A stretch of 24,987 nucleotides of DNA. Origin: Leptospiraceae bacterium (GTDB lineage: Bacteria > Spirochaetota > Leptospiria > Leptospirales > Leptonemataceae). This document shows, in pieces, positions 1 to 7,247 of the stretch (positions are counted from its first letter, which is position 1; each line of letters begins with the position of its first letter). Below the pieces are notes generated by a model, which had not been told where the DNA came from, did no database searches, and saw only the letters and a list, made by a program, of their open reading frames with translations. Location of the stretch: contig JAGRNC010000001.1 in assembly GCA_020440935.1 (NCBI GenBank), positions 1 through 24,987 of the forward strand. Reading direction: 5' to 3'. Made by a program: the position numbers and the translations under genes.

Positions 1-309
1 GAATAACGGGTGCGCAAATAATCGTTCTTCGTGCTCGGCTTCCAGCCCTTCGGCGCGGATCCATCGGCGAAGAGTGGAAGATAAATCCAGCATGCAGCCG
101 CGCAGAGTACCTCCCGAATCGGCTTCATAGAGCAGGCTGCCTTCTTCTGTAATGGCTCTGCCCCCAAAGGCGGATTGCAATCGCTTTGCCGGGTCAATGC
201 TGATTAATCCGGTGCGATATCCTCTTTCTGCAAGATAGGCCGAATAGGAGGCACTGAGTGTGGTTTTTCCCACGCCACCGGCACCGAGAAAGACTACCAG
301 AGTGGGCAT
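1..309 (-). CDS. ArsA/Get3-family ATPase, Rv3680/BagB-like (5' part only; runs off the window edge)
   Basis: Not in the ORF track; translated by hand from the ATG at 309: MPTLVVFLGAGGVGKTTLSASYSAYLAERGYRTGLISIDPAKRLQSAFGG..., open to position 1. P-loop GAGGVGKT and switch I IDPAKRL are present. Starts 7 nt after the stop of the upstream ATPase. Confidence 0.9.
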   Translation of the reverse strand, partial: MPTLVVFLGAGGVGKTTLSASYSAYLAERGYRTGLISIDPAKRLQSAFGGRAITEEGSLLYEADSGGTLRGCMLDLSSTLRRWIRAEGLEAEHEERLFAHPLF

Positions 310-316
310 CTTCTTC

Positions 317-1267
317 TCAGACAATGGCTTTCTCCGAGGCAGCAATTAATTGGCGGAAGTTTGCATTCCGTGCAACGCAATGAAGTATTCCTTCGCCGCT
401 CAAGGAAGGCTGTTCGATCATAAAGTCCGGCACGGAAATCACAGGAACGGGGCTTTCCGTATGCAATCGGTCTTCCATAGTAAATCGCCGATGCAGGTCG
501 GCCAGTAATGCGCGGTACTCGGAGGCCAATTCTCCGGAGGCCTCCGGCAAAGTAATTTGGCCGGTATCCAATGTTTCCGATTGCAGGCGAGCGCTTCGAT
601 TTGCAATAAGGGCTACCGGCAGATGGCCTGGCTCTTTGCTATAGCGTGGTAACGCTTCCAGAGTCTCTTCTACCGGCAATTCTTCGGGCAGAGCAACGGT
701 GATGATGGCCGTTCGTTGGGGGTCTGCAAGTAGTTTGCTTACTCTTCGCGTTTCATCTACCAGAGGTCCTGAGAATTCAAATGCGCTAATCGTGGATGCA
801 ATGCCAAACAATGCGGCCCCATGCCCGGTGGCCGGTGCATCTACAATGATTCGATCAAACTTCAGGTTTCTTTCTTCTTCAGCCAATTCAGCCAGCCAGA
901 ATAGGCGGCCCACAAAGAAAAGCTCCTCCAATCCAGGGGCGGATTGCAGCAGTTTTTGCACTTGCTGGTTCTGCAATACAAGAGTATACAGAAGTTTCAT
1001 ATTTAGATGATCCACAAAATACTCTCGCATGGCCTCCGATGGGTTGAAGTTCATGACCGAAAGGTTTTCCCGCAGAGCTTCCTGCTTGTGACCTGCAGGA
1101 GCGACCCCAAACAGGGGGGAAATAAAATCGCGAAAGGACCACTGAACCAACAATGTGTTCTCACCCTGTTCGGCGAATGCCAGTCCCAGGCTGGCAGCGA
1201 TGGTGGTTCGACCTACGCCGCCTTTGCCGGTAACAAAAATGAGCTTTTGCTTAATAGGCCAGCTCAT
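317..1267 (-). CDS. ArsA/Get3-family ATPase, Rv3679/BagA-like (degenerate nucleotide site)
   Basis: FVTGKGGVGRTT deviant Walker A, PGLEELF motif and IIVDAPATGH (Walker B/switch II). GGAGG precedes the ATG, which overlaps the upstream stop (ATGA, 1264-1267). Confidence 0.9.
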   Translation of the reverse strand: MSWPIKQKLIFVTGKGGVGRTTIAASLGLAFAEQGENTLLVQWSFRDFISPLFGVAPAGHKQEALRENLSVMNFNPSEAMREYFVDHLNMKLLYTLVLQNQQVQKLLQSAPGLEELFFVGRLFWLAELAEEERNLKFDRIIVDAPATGHGAALFGIASTISAFEFSGPLVDETRRVSKLLADPQRTAIITVALPEELPVEETLEALPRYSKEPGHLPVALIANRSARLQSETLDTGQITLPEASGELASEYRALLADLHRRFTMEDRLHTESPVPVISVPDFMIEQPSLSGEGILHCVARNANFRQLIAASEKAIV

Positions 1268-3687
1268 GCAGCGCCTCCGGATCGTTCTTCTTTCGGCAGC
1301 AATCCTCGGACCGCCGCCCCCTCGTTCGGTGCCTGCTGGATCGCGCTCCAGCGACGCAGAAAATCCATTTGCTCATGGGTCTCGATGGCGCGTTCCGAAC
1401 GCGCTCTGCGTACCGATTCTACCGCCGATTCCAGATCCAGGCCGCCTTTCATTAGATAGGAAGCGGCCACCAATCCCGAGCGCCCAAGTCCGCCCACACA
1501 ATGGATCAGAACACTTTGCCCATTCTTTATGCGGCTGTCGATCCAATCCAGAGATCGCTCCAGTGATTCCAGGGAAGGCGCATGCTGATCGAGGATCGGA
1601 AAATGCAAAGCCTCCAGGTTATGGTTTTGGTACTGTTTTAACAGATCGCTGGTTCCGTAGTATTCCAGTTCATCGGGGGTTACCAGGCAAACTACGCAGC
1701 TTACTAGATTTTCGATTACTTCTAGATCATCGGCTATATCGCGGTTTCGATCTTTGCGGCCGGGCAAAATCGTAATATAAATCTTTCCGATCTCCGGATT
1801 CTTTTGAGGTTCAGTAGAGCGTCGATGCGAGTCCTCATCGAGGGGAACTTCATCCAGTCGAAGCCGTTGACTGGCCGCAATGGTAGCGCTCACTCGCCGG
1901 GTCAAATGTCCGCTGGCATAAAGAGCCCACTTCTTCTGGTATAGATTGCATTCATCAAAACTAAGAGTATGCACCGCATAGCGCAGGTAAGCAACGTGAA
2001 ACTGGTAAGGATCACGATCCGAACCGATGAGGCTGCGATAGTAGGATCGCAGAATGCAGAGAGTTTTCCAGGCTTTTCTAAATTGGGGAAACCCAAAGGA
2101 TTCTGCCAGTGATTCATCGGGTACTATGCCCAGGTCGGAGTGCCCAAGTTGCAAGTCCGTGAATCGAAAAGCTTCGGCCAGTTCTGCGTCGCTGTCAACG
2201 TTGGTCATTATGAATAGTATGTCGTTTTCCAGTTTGACCAGGTCGCGAATAACATGACCTCTATGAGTGTGAAAGAAATCGATGAGCCAGACATTGTCGC
2301 GGCTGTCCAGGATAATGTTTCGGCCATTCAAATCGCCATGGATGAAGCCAGTCGCATGCGAAGCGGTGGTTTCCTTTAGATGTGGTAAGTCGTTGCGGTA
2401 GAAATACGCCGGGTTTGGCGTTTGATGGCCTGGTAGGATTTCAATTTCGCTGCCGCATTCCTGCTCCATGATGGCGTTGACGCGTTTTGTTACTCCGTCG
2501 GCATACCTGGGCTGGAAATCGTAGTATTGCAGCAGGTTGAGCTGCTCGGGCTCAGAGGCGGCGTACAGTCGGCCAAGCTGCTTCTTGAAAACAGTGTCCA
2601 GAATATCTCGTAACAGTTCTCCGTTGCTTTCGCATTCTTTCGAAGTGTAGAACTCTTGAAAGGTGCGAACGTTCCCTTCCAGCATGGAAGCATATCGGTA
2701 CAGGATGGCTCCCCGGTCGGAAAGTTCGCAGGAGTCTACGATGGCGGGGGCGCTATTGCCCAGCACTTCCTGGATTCGTTCGAAGGAAGCTCTTTCCTGA
2801 GCGATTAGATCCCGCGGACCAATCTTTGCAACCAGGGGCACCTGACGATGTCCCATATGATCGGTGGCCCGGGCGCCCAGAACCAGGTTGCCCGAGTAGC
2901 CACCGTCCAGTACGGACAAATCCACTTCTTTGCTATTTCTAAATAGATAGAGCAGCAATTCTTCGTCGGTTTCGCTGGCATGGGAAGGTTTATCCCAATG
3001 GAGCCGCGAATGATCCACACGACTGTGGGTCATCTGCACCAGTCGGGGTGTTGTTCCTACCAGGAATTCGGCAAACGAGGAGGGCGAGCTGATTACCTCA
3101 ACGCCCAGGATATTGCGGATCTGATCCAGTGCATAAAAATGCATGCTCCTGGACGAGGAAGCGCAAAGCGCCGAACAAATAGCAATTTGAAACTCCGGGT
3201 ATCTGGTCGCTATCTCGTATGTTAGAAAGTAGACTTTTGCTTCCGTCCAGACCCCCATGATGCCCACTCGCAGGGGCTGCCCGCGATACTGATCGAGCAA
3301 CTTTGCAATCTCCGTATCATGGAAATCGTTCAGCCCTGTGGCATCCAGGATGGTATGCTGTCTGTTGTTCTGTATCCGATCGCTAAAAACAAAGTCTGCG
3401 CCCGGAGTATTTCTGATGCAGTGACTGCCAAATTGCCGCAAATGCGCGGCCTGCGTGGAATCATCGGGATTGTGCCAGTCGCGAATATGAACGATTTCAA
3501 GGTCGGACTCTGGCTGGTTGTACGCCCAGCCAACAATAAGCCGCACCGGATCGTCTTCCAGTTGTCCCATCAGCAAACGGCGGGATTCTTCATAACCTAC
3601 GTGCAGCTGGTTTGGGAGCGGATCATAACGATCCAGCGGTTGCACAAAATCATTCTGTAGACATTGGGTTATGAGTATACCTTTCAA
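1264..3687 (-). CDS. Tri-domain protein: isochorismatase/nicotinamidase (PncA)-like fold + APH/TCAD9-like kinase + CDKN3-like dual-specificity phosphatase
   Basis: N-terminal region: CLQNDF, RDWH, HCIRNTPGADF, GVWTEAKV. Middle region: GGYSG, VAK, HGDLNGRN, LIDF, DLVKLEND. C-terminal region: HCVGGLGRSG. The ORF track starts at TTG 3735; TTG 3687 (GGAG 8 nt upstream, N-terminus matching the PncA start) is preferred. Confidence 0.88.
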   Translation of the reverse strand: MKGILITQCLQNDFVQPLDRYDPLPNQLHVGYEESRRLLMGQLEDDPVRLIVGWAYNQPESDLEIVHIRDWHNPDDSTQAAHLRQFGSHCIRNTPGADFVFSDRIQNNRQHTILDATGLNDFHDTEIAKLLDQYRGQPLRVGIMGVWTEAKVYFLTYEIATRYPEFQIAICSALCASSSRSMHFYALDQIRNILGVEVISSPSSFAEFLVGTTPRLVQMTHSRVDHSRLHWDKPSHASETDEELLLYLFRNSKEVDLSVLDGGYSGNLVLGARATDHMGHRQVPLVAKIGPRDLIAQERASFERIQEVLGNSAPAIVDSCELSDRGAILYRYASMLEGNVRTFQEFYTSKECESNGELLRDILDTVFKKQLGRLYAASEPEQLNLLQYYDFQPRYADGVTKRVNAIMEQECGSEIEILPGHQTPNPAYFYRNDLPHLKETTASHATGFIHGDLNGRNIILDSRDNVWLIDFFHTHRGHVIRDLVKLENDILFIMTNVDSDAELAEAFRFTDLQLGHSDLGIVPDESLAESFGFPQFRKAWKTLCILRSYYRSLIGSDRDPYQFHVAYLRYAVHTLSFDECNLYQKKWALYASGHLTRRVSATIAASQRLRLDEVPLDEDSHRRSTEPQKNPEIGKIYITILPGRKDRNRDIADDLEVIENLVSCVVCLVTPDELEYYGTSDLLKQYQNHNLEALHFPILDQHAPSLESLERSLDWIDSRIKNGQSVLIHCVGGLGRSGLVAASYLMKGGLDLESAVESVRRARSERAIETHEQMDFLRRWSAIQQAPNEGAAVRGLLPKEERSGGAA

Positions 3688-3731
3688 AACTCCGACTCCG
3701 TCCAGGTTTGCCGGCACGATATTAGATTCTA

Positions 3732-5150
3732 TCAATAGACATCAACGCTTTTAAAGCTGGAAATCTCTCCCAGTCGGCGCCTCGAGATTTTCTCGGTTAC
3801 CGTGAGCCCCTCAAAAATGAACTCCATCCCGACTGCAAGGTCCTGATCGTCTTGATCCCATTTCTTATCGCGGAGTAGATCAAAGAGCGCCGGTACAGTC
3901 TCCATTAGCTCTCTATAAGCGGATGCTGGCATGGAATCGCTAATCTCTACATTGCCGGCCTCGTAGATTTGACGAGTGATTTGCTCGAATGTGGCATCGT
4001 ACTGGGCCGGCGGGAAGTATTCCAGAAATACTTCCTTTATGGCCAGATCGGCAATCTTCATGACAACCTGATACTCGGTTACCGCCTCATCGCGGTAGGG
4101 ATCCAGTTCTATTTTGCCGGAACTGGATGCGAAGAGATTCCCCAGGTCTGTGGGCCGCACCACGCCACGCTCCTCACCCAGCAGCAACGCTCTGCGTCGA
4201 GCCGATGCAACACAGGTTTCGTAGTTCGCTATACTGAGTCGCGCAGATACTCCTGATTTCTGATTCACCATTGGATGATGCCTGGCCTGCACGGTAATTT
4301 CCTCGATGATTTGCTCCATAAAATCGGGAAATACCACCGGAGGCTCCACGTCCGGGTTGGCCGCTTCCTGGCGGGTAATTTCCAGTCCCACAGCTCGCGT
4401 CTTGGGATAGTGAGTGCGGATCTCAGCGCCGATTCGGTCTTTTAGCTGAGTAATGATCTTTCCCGATCTGGAGTAATCGGCAGGATTTGCGGTAAAGCAA
4501 ACGAATACATCCAGAGGTATTCGCAATGGTAACCCACGGATCTGGATATCTTCCTCTTCCAGAATATTGAACATGGCAACCTGCACCAGATAATCGAGGT
4601 CGGGAAGCTCATTAATGGCAAAGATTCCGTGGTTCATGCGCGGAAGTAGTCCAAAGTGCAGGGCTTCTTCTGCCCCCATACTTTTGCCTTCCATAACCTT
4701 GGCCGGGTCCAGATCGCCTATGATATCGGCAATGCGGGAACCGGGAGCCAGCCGTTCTCCGTACCGCTCATCGCGATGGATCCAATGGAGCGGGGCCTCA
4801 TCTCCATGCTCGGAAAGTATTTCTTTGCCTCGTCGCGTGATGGGACGGAAGGGGCTCTCCGGTATTTCCGTTCCCGCAATTACCGGAAAGTACTCATCCA
4901 GCAAATGATTCAGGTTTCGCATGATCCTGGACTTGGCCTGGCCCTTTTCGCCCAGGATGGCGATGTTGTGTCCCGCAAGTATTGCATGGTATAGCTGCGG
5001 CATAACGGTATCCTCGTAGCCATGGATCCCTGGAATGACCGGATCATGACTGCGGAGGATGCGGCTCAAATTCTGAGCCATTTCTGATTTGATATTTCTG
5101 TAAATGTATCCCGATGCTTTTAGTTGTCCGAAGGTCTGTATATCTTTCAT
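3732..5150 (-). CDS. AAA+ ATPase of the MoxR/Mg-chelatase-I-like clade (Rv0958-like)
   Basis: GEKGQAKS Walker A, FAINE Walker B variant, FTANP sensor 1, LKDR arginine finger, GVSAR sensor 2. ATG 5150 is preferred over 5171. Confidence 0.85.
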   Translation of the reverse strand: MKDIQTFGQLKASGYIYRNIKSEMAQNLSRILRSHDPVIPGIHGYEDTVMPQLYHAILAGHNIAILGEKGQAKSRIMRNLNHLLDEYFPVIAGTEIPESPFRPITRRGKEILSEHGDEAPLHWIHRDERYGERLAPGSRIADIIGDLDPAKVMEGKSMGAEEALHFGLLPRMNHGIFAINELPDLDYLVQVAMFNILEEEDIQIRGLPLRIPLDVFVCFTANPADYSRSGKIITQLKDRIGAEIRTHYPKTRAVGLEITRQEAANPDVEPPVVFPDFMEQIIEEITVQARHHPMVNQKSGVSARLSIANYETCVASARRRALLLGEERGVVRPTDLGNLFASSSGKIELDPYRDEAVTEYQVVMKIADLAIKEVFLEYFPPAQYDATFEQITRQIYEAGNVEISDSMPASAYRELMETVPALFDLLRDKKWDQDDQDLAVGMEFIFEGLTVTEKISRRRLGEISSFKSVDVY

Positions 5151-5324: not shown

Positions 5325-7247
5325 CTACTCATGCAGTTTTTCTTGCACACGGAACCAGCGCGATGGTAGAAACGGAAAAATATGTAGCAAAATGTCCGAT
5401 GCATGCAGTACGATTCGTTCGCGGTTGTATTCCACCTGCAGATCTGCATGACGCGAAATGGCATATTTCAATCGTTCAATGGAGTTTCCAAAGTACAGAT
5501 TAAGAATGGGGCCAATCCCGCGAACCATGAGCGGAATTAGATGCACCCGATCCGGCTTTTCTTTCTGGATAAACTGATTTATGGCGGTGATAGTATCGGT
5601 GTCAGGAGGCACCGGTACATTCAAGAACCAATCGGGTAATTCGGCGGACTCAATTTGTCCAGGGTCGCTTTGAAAATGAACCACCAGCGGCATCTGTCCG
5701 CTTCGCACAAAGTTACGTAGAAAATGCACAACTCCTGGATGGAACTTTGACACCAGCACAATATGTTTGCGATTTACCGGATGATTCTGAAATGCCGGGT
5801 ACCAAAGGCCGAGCTCCAGTGGCACTACTTTCAGCTTTTCTTCCCAGATTTGATAGATTGCCTCCGAAACCTGGAACATCATAAAATAGAGGACCATTAA
5901 TATGACGATGAACCACGCCCCTTCGAAGAATTTATTGTACGTAATGTTCCAGAACATTCCATGCATAACGACCAGGGCAACAAGCGTTAGCAGAGAGAAT
6001 TTACGCGTTCGGATCTGGCGTAAGAAATAGCTTGTAAGGTCAATATTCATGGCCGCTACAACGGCCAGGCCGTACATCCCTTCGATGTCATGGCTGGAAG
6101 GGAAGAAAACCAGGATAATGACGCTAAGGATGCCCAGAAGAATGGTGGCCCGTGGGTTGTACACACCTTCGTGGCCGCCCAGTATGAAAGCAGGCTTGGT
6201 GCGTTTCCAGGCCATATCTCCCACGCCGCGCGGAAAGAATCGGCTACGTGCTGCCCGGAGGATTTCCAGGGGGAAGTCAGTCTGTGCGGTCTGCGCAGCG
6301 AGCAAGAGCATAATCGCAGTTAAGACTCCAAAAGGCCGACCAACCCAGGCTCCGCCAAGATGCGAGGCAATACTCATGGGAACGGGAATATGTTCGTCAT
6401 AGACGATACCCAGGCCCATGAAGTTAATGAGCTGCATGAAATAGGTAGTGATTACAAGGGCGAATAGAATCCACATAGATATGCGAATCGCTTTGCCTTT
6501 ATGGTAGGGCAGATTCACCGAACTGTATCCAACCTCAACGCCGGTGATGAGAGTGGCTCCGTTGGCTACGGAAGCCAGGATCACCGGAATCATACTAACC
6601 ACGCCGGCTTCTTTGATGTTTTCTCCGATGACAGGCGCCTGCCAGCCATTTTCAAGAATGGTGAAAATTCCGTACGCATTGATGGAAAGGTTTGATACGT
6701 AAAATGCCAGAACGGGCCAGATCATGAATCTGGACAGGTTACCCAGGCCGTATCGTTGGACTACGGACAGAAAAACCACAAATCCCAGCGCCCACTTTAG
6801 CCGGTCGTCCACCGGAATGAAATACAGGTTCTCCACGCCAGCGATGAGACTGATGGCCTGGGTTGCAGGAAAGTCCGCCAGCAGGCTGGCTGTGCCCAGC
6901 TTTCCCATATTGTGGATGAATGCCTTTAGCCGGGGATGACGGCGAATATGCTGCGAAGTGAGTAGCGCAGAAACGAAGGCGCCGCCGCCCAGCACCGGAT
7001 GGGTGTGGTGACGGATCATGCTATTGTAGACCAGAATGGCGATGAGATACACCCCCATAATGATACAACCAGCGGAGAGCGTTGCGGTCATCCCCAGCTC
7101 GAAGCTGGTGGCGAATAGCGCAATGGTCACTGCGATGACCGCATCTGCACCATAGGCCAGCGAAGACCCCGGGTCAGTGAGGATGGTTGCAAAGATTATG
7201 CGGATATCGCTAAGTAAGCTAGGTGGTTTCTCTGAGGAGTGGTCCAT
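5325..7247 (-). CDS. APC-superfamily transporter, KimA/YdaO-like K+ importer
   Basis: About 12 hydrophobic segments plus a cytoplasmic C-terminal domain. TDPGSSLAYG matches KimA SDALSSVAYG with the same Asp-Tyr spacing; GGGAFV and ITGVE motifs are present. Confidence 0.8.
   Translation of the reverse strand: MDHSSEKPPSLLSDIRIIFATILTDPGSSLAYGADAVIAVTIALFATSFELGMTATLSAGCIIMGVYLIAILVYNSMIRHHTHPVLGGGAFVSALLTSQHIRRHPRLKAFIHNMGKLGTASLLADFPATQAISLIAGVENLYFIPVDDRLKWALGFVVFLSVVQRYGLGNLSRFMIWPVLAFYVSNLSINAYGIFTILENGWQAPVIGENIKEAGVVSMIPVILASVANGATLITGVEVGYSSVNLPYHKGKAIRISMWILFALVITTYFMQLINFMGLGIVYDEHIPVPMSIASHLGGAWVGRPFGVLTAIMLLLAAQTAQTDFPLEILRAARSRFFPRGVGDMAWKRTKPAFILGGHEGVYNPRATILLGILSVIILVFFPSSHDIEGMYGLAVVAAMNIDLTSYFLRQIRTRKFSLLTLVALVVMHGMFWNITYNKFFEGAWFIVILMVLYFMMFQVSEAIYQIWEEKLKVVPLELGLWYPAFQNHPVNRKHIVLVSKFHPGVVHFLRNFVRSGQMPLVVHFQSDPGQIESAELPDWFLNVPVPPDTDTITAINQFIQKEKPDRVHLIPLMVRGIGPILNLYFGNSIERLKYAISRHADLQVEYNRERIVLHASDILLHIFPFLPSRWFRVQEKLHE

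Follow-up and report, generated by a model that had tools for sequence, protein, structure and literature searches.

The contig JAGRNC010000001.1 of a Leptospiraceae bacterium (assembly GCA_020440935.1) carries near its left end an array of five co-oriented minus-strand open reading frames (ORFs), as seen from the ORF listing and a reading of the junctions. In the direction of transcription these are a gene for a K_trans-like membrane protein, a gene for an AAA+ ATPase, a gene for a protein of three domains (PncA-like, kinase and phosphatase, hereafter the three-domain protein), a gene for an ATPase of the ArsA/Get3 fold (ArsA1), and the start of a second such gene (ArsA2). The window, meaning the whole stretch of DNA that was analysed, is a complete contig of 24,987 bp from a fragmented metagenome-assembled genome (MAG; 930 contigs, 3.66 Mb, 77% complete), and the DNA runs that contain it are wastewater and activated-sludge metagenomes. 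A preliminary description had proposed that the last four genes form one module, in which a sensor-kinase-phosphatase switch gates a chaperone or a membrane-targeting machine. The reading favoured here, with a probability of about 0.6, is that the cluster is a genus-specific operon of three units with separate evolution and most likely separate functions, rather than a conserved new system.

The distribution of the gene order carries this reading. Only in the window's genus (g1) do all four lie side by side, and there they do so in 7 of 7 genomes, with the region split at contig ends in two. In other lineages they occur separately, contrary to the idea that they are linked beyond this one. The three complete loci of the same genus all start the block with the K_trans-like gene and have an opposite-strand gene after ArsA2; the operon therefore stops at ArsA2, and the suspected continuation past the left edge of the window, apart from the rest of ArsA2 itself, falls away. 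A smaller unit reaches further. AAA+, ArsA1 and ArsA2 are directly adjacent in seven genomes of two other genera (g2 and g10), with no three-domain gene between them. Six of these genomes (92-97% complete) contain no detectable three-domain gene at all, and in the seventh it lies about 1.3 Mb from the AAA+-ArsA genes. The AAA+-ArsA junctions of the loci L088 and L089 are tight: the genes either overlap or lie no more than 27 nt apart. The one-module proposal therefore holds in part: the order is kept within the genus, and AAA+-ArsA1-ArsA2 in three genera, but conservation of the four genes together does not extend beyond the genus.

The compact layout reported in the preliminary description, four co-oriented and almost gapless genes with an ATGA coupling and a 7-nt spacer, was confirmed by the ORF listing and by direct reading of the junctions (Table 1). 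The likely start of the AAA+ gene is ATG 5150 (MKDIQT, matching homologues), and its stop codon, TGA at 3734-3732, lies where it had been placed. The ORF of the three-domain gene is open from TTG 3735. By alignment with homologues its start is most likely TTG 3687 (MKGILITQ), 8 nt behind a GGAG, and a gap of 44 nt would therefore follow the AAA+ gene; among the genomes of the genus it ranges between about 9 and about 286 nt. The ATGA at 1267-1264 is an overlap of the three-domain stop with the ArsA1 start, and the same 4-nt overlap is found in two of the three complete same-genus loci. It falls in the C-terminal tail of the three-domain protein, which is short and genus-specific. The ArsA1 stop codon (319-317) is followed by the spacer gaagaag and by the ATG of ArsA2 at 309. 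ArsA2 is incomplete in the window because the window is a whole contig and the gene runs off its end; residues 164-340 are found on a 532-bp contig of the same genome (G000:C921). A contig of 2434 nt in the DNA run X2, about 95% identical, covers positions 1-1341 of the window and reaches 1093 nt past its left edge, a length sufficient for the rest of ArsA2. Scans of the window for sigma-70-like promoters and for terminators give background levels only. They include a promoter-like match (TTTAAA-18-TAGAAT) at 3755-3726 that overlaps the 3' end of the AAA+ gene, with a total of matches not above shuffled expectation. No RNA run covers the region, and two nominal metatranscriptomes, flagged as probably DNA, yield one 166-nt contig within the three-domain gene.

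Table 1. Genes, domains and spacer of the cluster, in order of transcription (window positions).
Feature	Position	Strand	Length and basis
K_trans-like integral membrane protein	5325..7247	-	640 aa; Pfam K_trans 48.5 bits
ChlI/BchI-like AAA+ ATPase, Rv0958-like family	3732..5150	-	472 aa; Walker A variant GEKGQAKS, Walker B variant FAINE
Spacer from AAA+ stop to likely three-domain start	3688..3731	-	44 nt; contains GGAG ribosome-binding site
Three-domain protein, N-terminal PncA-like domain	3043..3687	-	Pfam Isochorismatase, PDB search, Foldseek
Three-domain protein, central TCAD9/APH-type kinase domain	1858..3015	-	Pfam, Foldseek, invariant motifs
Three-domain protein, C-terminal KAP/archaeal-type Cys phosphatase and short tail	1264..1800	-	Pfam, PDB search, Foldseek
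ArsA1, BagA-like ArsA/Get3-fold ATPase	317..1267	-	316 aa; Pfam, NCBIfam, PDB search
ArsA2, BagB-like ArsA/Get3-fold ATPase, first 103 aa (contig end)	1..309	-	NCBIfam best match BagB

The AAA+ ATPase had been described as MoxR-like. It reaches no Pfam family at that family's cutoff, a PDB search gives ChlI of Mg-chelatase (8osf, E 1.5e-8) as the best solved relative, and its NCBIfam matches are weak BchI/ChlI hits below equivalog level (TIGR02030, 26 bits vs. a cutoff of 467). It is therefore ChlI/BchI-like and not a MoxR (AAA_3), and is placed in a putative Rv0958-type family. The MoxR models AAA_3 (PF07726) and AAA_5 give no match at E <= 0.01, compared with 210 bits on AAA_3 for a true MoxR (from L030), and neither a ChlH-like nor a ChlD-like gene is present in the cluster according to the ORF list and Pfam. 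Homologues number at least 8000 in a protein search, and no Pfam model covers the family. The protein is 89% identical between members of the genus, and its remotest aligned relatives still show 51-55%; among the matches listed is a Candidatus Nitrosotenuis protein at 54%. The Walker A motif GEKGQAK[ST] and an Asn-Glu Walker B are invariant in the alignment. From the MAG to the most distant aligned relatives, Ala replaces the last Gly of Walker A and Asn-Glu replaces the Asp-Glu of Walker B. Two genes considered as further relatives, a 415-aa gene upstream of a Bacteroidota copy of the three-domain gene and a 477-aa gene near the ArsA pair of L095, proved unrelated.

The distant lineage L005 has, directly after the AAA+ gene, a gene for a 582-aa vWA protein with a recorded Rv0959_3rd domain, and the two form an Rv0958/Rv0959-type pair. 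An Rv0959-like vWA homologue is also present in the genome studied here (G000:C204, E 1e-112, VWA_2 33 bits), on a separate contig from the AAA+ gene. It encodes 564 aa at G000:C204:1281-2975 (L092), between genes for an LpxD-like hexapeptide transferase and an endonuclease/exonuclease/phosphatase-family protein. The vWA and AAA+ genes co-occur genome by genome, in 15 of 41 genomes and in the same genera, and remain unlinked. The only two discrepancies fall in genomes of 78% and 81% completeness.

The three-domain protein is strongly conserved and probably self-contained as an enzyme. Its assignment to PncA-like, kinase and Cys-phosphatase domains, already made in the preliminary description, is borne out by Pfam, PDB search, and AlphaFold combined with Foldseek. 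The AlphaFold model was built on an alignment of 62 sequences and has a mean predicted local distance difference test (pLDDT) of 87.6 and a predicted template-modelling score (pTM) of 0.75. The N-terminal domain is a borderline match to Pfam Isochorismatase (PF00857, 27.1 bits vs. a cutoff of 27) and finds 1ilw in a PDB sequence search (E 1.8e-4). Foldseek matches it to PncA/isochorismatase-like hydrolases at template-modelling (TM) scores of 0.77-0.83, with PncA itself (6a8l, 3s2s) at 0.80-0.83. The motifs TQCLQNDF, RDWH, HC and GVWTEAK are invariant in the 62 sequences; RDWH and HC are the metal-site motifs and are kept. The catalytic triad is altered: an invariant Cys (TQCLQNDF) stands at what we take to be the Asp position, and an invariant Lys (GVWTEAK) at the presumed Cys position, both assigned by motif comparison with the PncA consensus.

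The central domain belongs to Pfam TCAD9 (PF19974, 220 bits vs. a cutoff of 40), with a further match to APH (38.6 bits), and its Foldseek neighbours are maltokinase, choline kinase and APH(3'). Across the same 62 sequences the catalytic motif HGDLNGxN, the D of IDFFH and the K of VxKIG do not vary. Two papers present TCAD9 as an APH-like kinase that is rare in vWA-MoxR-VMAP systems (PMC10910872; PMC7159879). The C-terminal domain matches Pfam Tc-R-P, CDKN3, DSPc (48.5 bits vs. 33.5) and PTP-SAK, as well as the PDB sequences 9e9l, 5z59, 2i6i and 1fpz. Foldseek places it with KAP/CDKN3 and archaeal PTPs (TM 0.85-0.88), KAP (1fpz) reaching 0.88. Its phosphatase loop HCVGGLGRSG and the upstream DQ acid loop are likewise invariant. 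A literature search covering TCAD domains, BagAB, Rv0958 and the Leptospira homologue found no paper that describes the three-domain architecture or the gene cluster; nor did it find a pathway joining the three families, in agreement with the preliminary description.

For the last two genes, Pfam, NCBIfam and PDB search bear out the proposed Get3/BagAB-like ATPase pair, as they do the AAA+ assignment upstream. ArsA1 matches Pfam ArsA_ATPase (PF02374) at 94.6 bits vs. 24.3, and stays below cutoff on the Get3 subfamily model TIGR00345 (88 vs. 135) and on BagA, its best NCBIfam match (NF053622, 110 bits vs. 400). Its best solved relative is Rv3679 (6bs3, E 2.4e-23). The fragment of ArsA2 finds BagB (NF053621) as its best NCBIfam match, at 51 bits vs. 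a cutoff of 521; the full-length protein has 366-391 aa in the same-genus loci L008, L009 and L011. The P-loops of the two proteins are complementary. That of ArsA1, GKGGVGR[TS] (GKGGVGRT in the window), keeps the signature Lys and has Arg in place of the P-loop Lys, and that of ArsA2, GAGGVGKT, keeps the P-loop Lys and has Ala in place of the signature Lys. The pattern holds in 8 of 8 ArsA1-ArsA2 pairs examined, from three lineages (window, L001, L088, L089, L090, L093, L094, L095). A model of the ArsA1-ArsA2 complex, made from a complete same-genus pair, scores 0.68 vs. 0.00 for the best control, a mark that 51 of 78 solved complexes and 2 of 108 mismatched pairs attain; as Get3 and ArsA dimers are among the solved structures, the model may owe part of this score to them. 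Both P-loops lie in the modelled interface. ArsA1 and ArsA2 are predicted, from this model and the P-loop pattern, to form a heterodimer with one composite ATP site.

The K_trans-like gene upstream is 85% identical among its copies and precedes the AAA+ gene in the same-genus loci L008-L011. It is kept in this position in the window's genus only and is not beside the AAA+ gene in L088 and L089. Its product has a weak match to K+ transporters (48 bits; 19 vs. a cutoff of 540 for the kup equivalog) and a soluble C-terminal extension of about 180 aa.

Without the AAA+ gene, the ArsA pair is found in G019, G047 and other phyla. In one of the two genera with the pair in which no AAA+ gene was found, an opposite-strand rhomboid gene lies upstream. 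Outside the family Leptonemataceae the pair stands alone (L095) or lies within an operon of the order TatA-ArsA1-ArsA2-MlaE-MlaF-MlaD. The latter is the case in Silvanigrella aquatica and a related lineage (L093:5766-11214, L094:5644-11401), where genes for TatA/B/E, ArsA1, ArsA2, MlaE, an ABC ATPase and MlaD are co-oriented. This block hints at a membrane or envelope role of the BagAB-like pair. One explanation of the cluster builds on these observations: AAA+, ArsA1 and ArsA2 may form a three-gene machine, in which the AAA+ protein, with its distant vWA partner, and the BagAB-like heterodimer would, for example, extract hydrophobic or membrane clients or pass them on. In that case the three-domain gene would be a passenger inserted in one genus. 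The three genes are adjacent and co-oriented in 14 genomes of three genera, with the tight junctions of L088 and L089, and their adjacency is kept in every Leptonemataceae genome that has both the AAA+ gene and the pair; the position between TatA and MlaEFD in Silvanigrella and relatives fits such a membrane or envelope role. However, three genera of one family may represent a single event retained by descent. Of 156 Leptospirales genomes, 44 have the AAA+ gene and 18 have ArsA2, and 30 of the 44 lack the ArsA pair, just as G019 and G047 have the pair and no AAA+ gene found. No AAA+ gene adjoins the pair outside the family, and in Mycobacterium tuberculosis Rv0958 is far from Rv3679/Rv3680, judged by locus numbers. 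A dedicated three-gene machine is a tentative possibility, less probable than the separate units of the favoured reading.

The three-domain gene follows a distribution of its own. More than 1000 proteins match it, at about 50% identity across phyla, and relatives occur in 362 stretches of a species-genome collection. In whole-genome searches of 41 relatives, 24 have the three-domain gene, 17 the AAA+ gene and 9 ArsA1. The two most-sampled Leptospiraceae genera (14 genomes, three-domain gene present) gave no AAA+ or ArsA match. Many named Leptospira species carry the gene; in Leptospira brenneri it stands alone between divergently oriented genes. In a tree the genus copy of the protein branches within the Leptospirales radiation, and its stem is of unremarkable length. 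The neighbourhood analysis suggested in the preliminary description covered the best 80 of the 362 matching loci and revealed no conserved partner. AAA+, ArsA1, ArsA2 or K_trans genes lie within 8 kb (tblastn) at 4 of these 80 loci, all of the same genus, and at none of the other 76. De novo clustering of the flanking ORFs yields at least 33 neighbourhood types and no partner shared by the best 80 loci, and the co-oriented genes next to the three-domain gene, tallied by Pfam family, have unrelated housekeeping functions.

Two further observations concern these neighbourhoods. In Leptospira perolatii, Leptospira MAGs, a Pseudomonadales MAG and two Bacteroidota MAGs (L046:5979-7995, L061, L074, L084, L087), a Band_7/SPFH gene and a gene of about 310 aa without a Pfam match recur beside the three-domain gene; their side and orientation vary. 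A Brevinematales MAG contig (CAYRWR010000003.1; L025 20364-38646, L026 121455-139737) holds two identical three-domain copies with the same flanks, about 100 kb apart and in opposite orientation, which indicates a large inverted duplication or an assembly artefact.

The TCAD9 domain, matched at 220 bits, raises the idea of an anti-phage or conflict system akin to the nucleoside triphosphate (NTP)-dependent ternary systems in which TCAD9 was defined, the more so as the neighbouring AAA+ protein belongs to the same broad clade as MoxR. However, none of the five proteins has a meaningful PADLOC match, and the cluster contains no gene for a vWA protein, VMAP, an effector-associated domain (EAD) or an effector. 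The proteins are single-copy and very conserved, unlike fast-evolving conflict genes, and the genes that flank the cluster are housekeeping genes. The defence reading was rejected on these grounds as very improbable.

In the favoured reading, the operon of this genus combines three units. The first would be an Rv0958-type, ChlI-like AAA+ remodelling motor, whose usual partner, an Rv0959-type vWA adaptor, lies here on another contig. The second would be the three-domain protein, a self-contained signalling enzyme common across Leptospirales, with scattered occurrences in other phyla. Its PncA-like domain, with the metal and ligand pocket kept and the amidase triad gone, may serve as a small-molecule sensor; a small molecule in this pocket would bias the APH-type kinase against the KAP-type phosphatase. 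Kinase and phosphatase may write and erase the same phosphate, whether its carrier is a small molecule, a protein or the enzyme itself. The third unit would be the BagA/BagB-like ArsA1/ArsA2 heterodimer, an asymmetric one-site ATPase with a putative membrane-related client. An ancestral AAA+-ArsA1-ArsA2 order is the simplest history, because the genera g2 and g10 carry these three genes with no detectable three-domain gene in six of seven genomes. The three-domain gene would have been inserted in the ancestor of the genus and then translationally coupled to ArsA1. Co-location would give co-expression, not an obligate partnership, and the modules would be independent of one another.

Several observations weigh against this reading. 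The four-gene order is present in every species of the genus, and the three-domain gene and ArsA1 overlap at ATGA, as is expected of co-translated partners, and AAA+ and ArsA genes are adjacent across three genera with gaps of about -1 to 27 nt. In another Leptospiraceae clade (L030, L036, L037, L054) the three-domain gene heads a MoxR-DUF58-BatA/B operon. It overlaps by 14 nt the start of this operon, which comprises MoxR (AAA_3), DUF58, a 283-aa unknown protein, a BatA-like vWA protein and a BatB-like vWA protein (L037:7992-15026). The gene thus lies directly beside a MoxR-class AAA+ of a vWA-using system in 2 of the at least 33 neighbourhood types, a recurrence above chance expectation by a rough, post hoc estimate that assumes one to three such AAA+ genes per genome of about 4000 genes. 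In addition, the two papers cited above name TCAD9 from vWA-MoxR-VMAP systems (PMC10910872; PMC7159879). Because of the two MoxR-class AAA+ neighbourhoods, the naming of TCAD9 and the ATGA coupling, about one chance in five is left that the three-domain protein acts on these neighbours.

These points are shared by the proposal of one functional module, in which phosphorylation by the three-domain switch controls the AAA+ remodeller, the Get3-like heterodimer or both. The order in 7 of 7 genomes of the genus and the overlap with ArsA1 are consistent with it, as are the second, independent juxtaposition with an AAA+/vWA operon and the first notice of TCAD9 in vWA-MoxR-VMAP systems (PMC7159879, PMC10910872). 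The phosphatase fold, moreover, is nearest that of KAP, which dephosphorylates a protein kinase. Yet 76 of the 80 best loci lack these partners, Leptospira-type genomes with the three-domain gene gave no AAA+ or ArsA match, and six genomes combine AAA+-ArsA1-ArsA2 with no three-domain gene detected. The gap of up to about 286 nt behind the AAA+ gene leaves room for a separate promoter, and the fold class of the kinase (APH, choline kinase, maltokinase) acts mostly on small-molecule substrates. A single module is unlikely on this balance. A broader proposal would make the PncA-like/TCAD9/KAP fusion a metabolite-gated regulator that is repeatedly recruited to MoxR-class AAA+/vWA remodellers: to the Rv0958-type AAA+ here, to the MoxR-DUF58-BatA/B operon and to the vWA-MoxR-VMAP systems. 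In this cluster its role would be to connect a remodeller of this type with a Get3-like heterodimer that has a single site and handles membrane or hydrophobic clients. Recruitment of this kind is also improbable, if anything a little more so; if true, it would open a first functional way into three orphan families (Rv0958/Rv0959, the BagAB-like pair and the TCAD9 fusion).

Because the cluster fails as a conserved new system, the value of the finding lies mostly in clarification. The three-domain enzyme can be studied alone, for instance in the saprophytic Leptospira biflexa. The Rv0958-like AAA+ protein and the BagAB-like pair are orphan families that are also present in mycobacteria. The AAA+-ArsA operon of Leptonemataceae and the TatA-ArsA-Mla operon of Silvanigrella offer testable hints that ArsA proteins may act at the membrane or envelope, and the complementarity of the P-loops predicts a heterodimer with a single catalytic site, a prediction open to mutagenesis.

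Among known systems, BagA/BagB (Rv3679/Rv3680 of Mycobacterium tuberculosis), two interacting ArsA/Get3-fold ATPases, resemble the ArsA pair most closely. Two ArsA-fold genes are adjacent in the same order, Rv3679 is the closest solved structure to ArsA1, and a heterodimer is likewise predicted here. PMC10597346 cites a reported role of BagAB in glycerol and nitric-oxide tolerance. In contrast to BagA/BagB, the ArsA proteins of the window score far below the equivalog cutoffs, and upstream of their genes stands an AAA+ gene, joined in this genus by the three-domain gene. Get3/TRC40 and the ArsA arsenite pump ATPase share with them the ArsA_ATPase fold, a deviant Walker A and, in the predicted dimer, P-loops that face each other. 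Unlike these, the pair is a predicted obligate heterodimer with one intact site, and neither ArsB nor other ars genes lie nearby. The Rv0958/Rv0959-type pair is a putative counterpart of the AAA+ protein of about 470 aa with GEKGQAK[ST] and NE motifs, and of the Rv0959-like vWA protein of the same genome. In Leptonemataceae, however, the two genes are unlinked, and ArsA genes stand behind the AAA+ gene instead.

The vWA-MoxR-VMAP ternary system (PMC7159879) is similar in placing a TCAD9/APH-like kinase with intact motifs beside an AAA+ of the helix-2-insert clade. The cluster of the window differs in that it has no MoxR, vWA, VMAP or effector-associated domains, its proteins evolve slowly as single copies, and its kinase is fused to PncA-like and phosphatase domains. 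In MoxR-DUF58-BatA/BatB operons, absent from this window, the AAA+ protein is of another family (AAA_3) and there are no ArsA genes; the three-domain gene at the head of one of them in the other Leptospiraceae clade parallels its position after the AAA+ gene here. From PncA nicotinamidases the N-terminal domain differs by the Cys and Lys that replace the Asp and Cys of the triad. Each domain of the three-domain protein superposes on a known enzyme class (PncA; APH, choline kinase and maltokinase; KAP/CDKN3, TkPTP and SsoPTP), with TM scores of 0.77-0.88 for the two end domains, and the CX5R and kinase catalytic motifs are intact. What distinguishes it from all of them is the fusion of the three domains in one chain of 780-800 aa.

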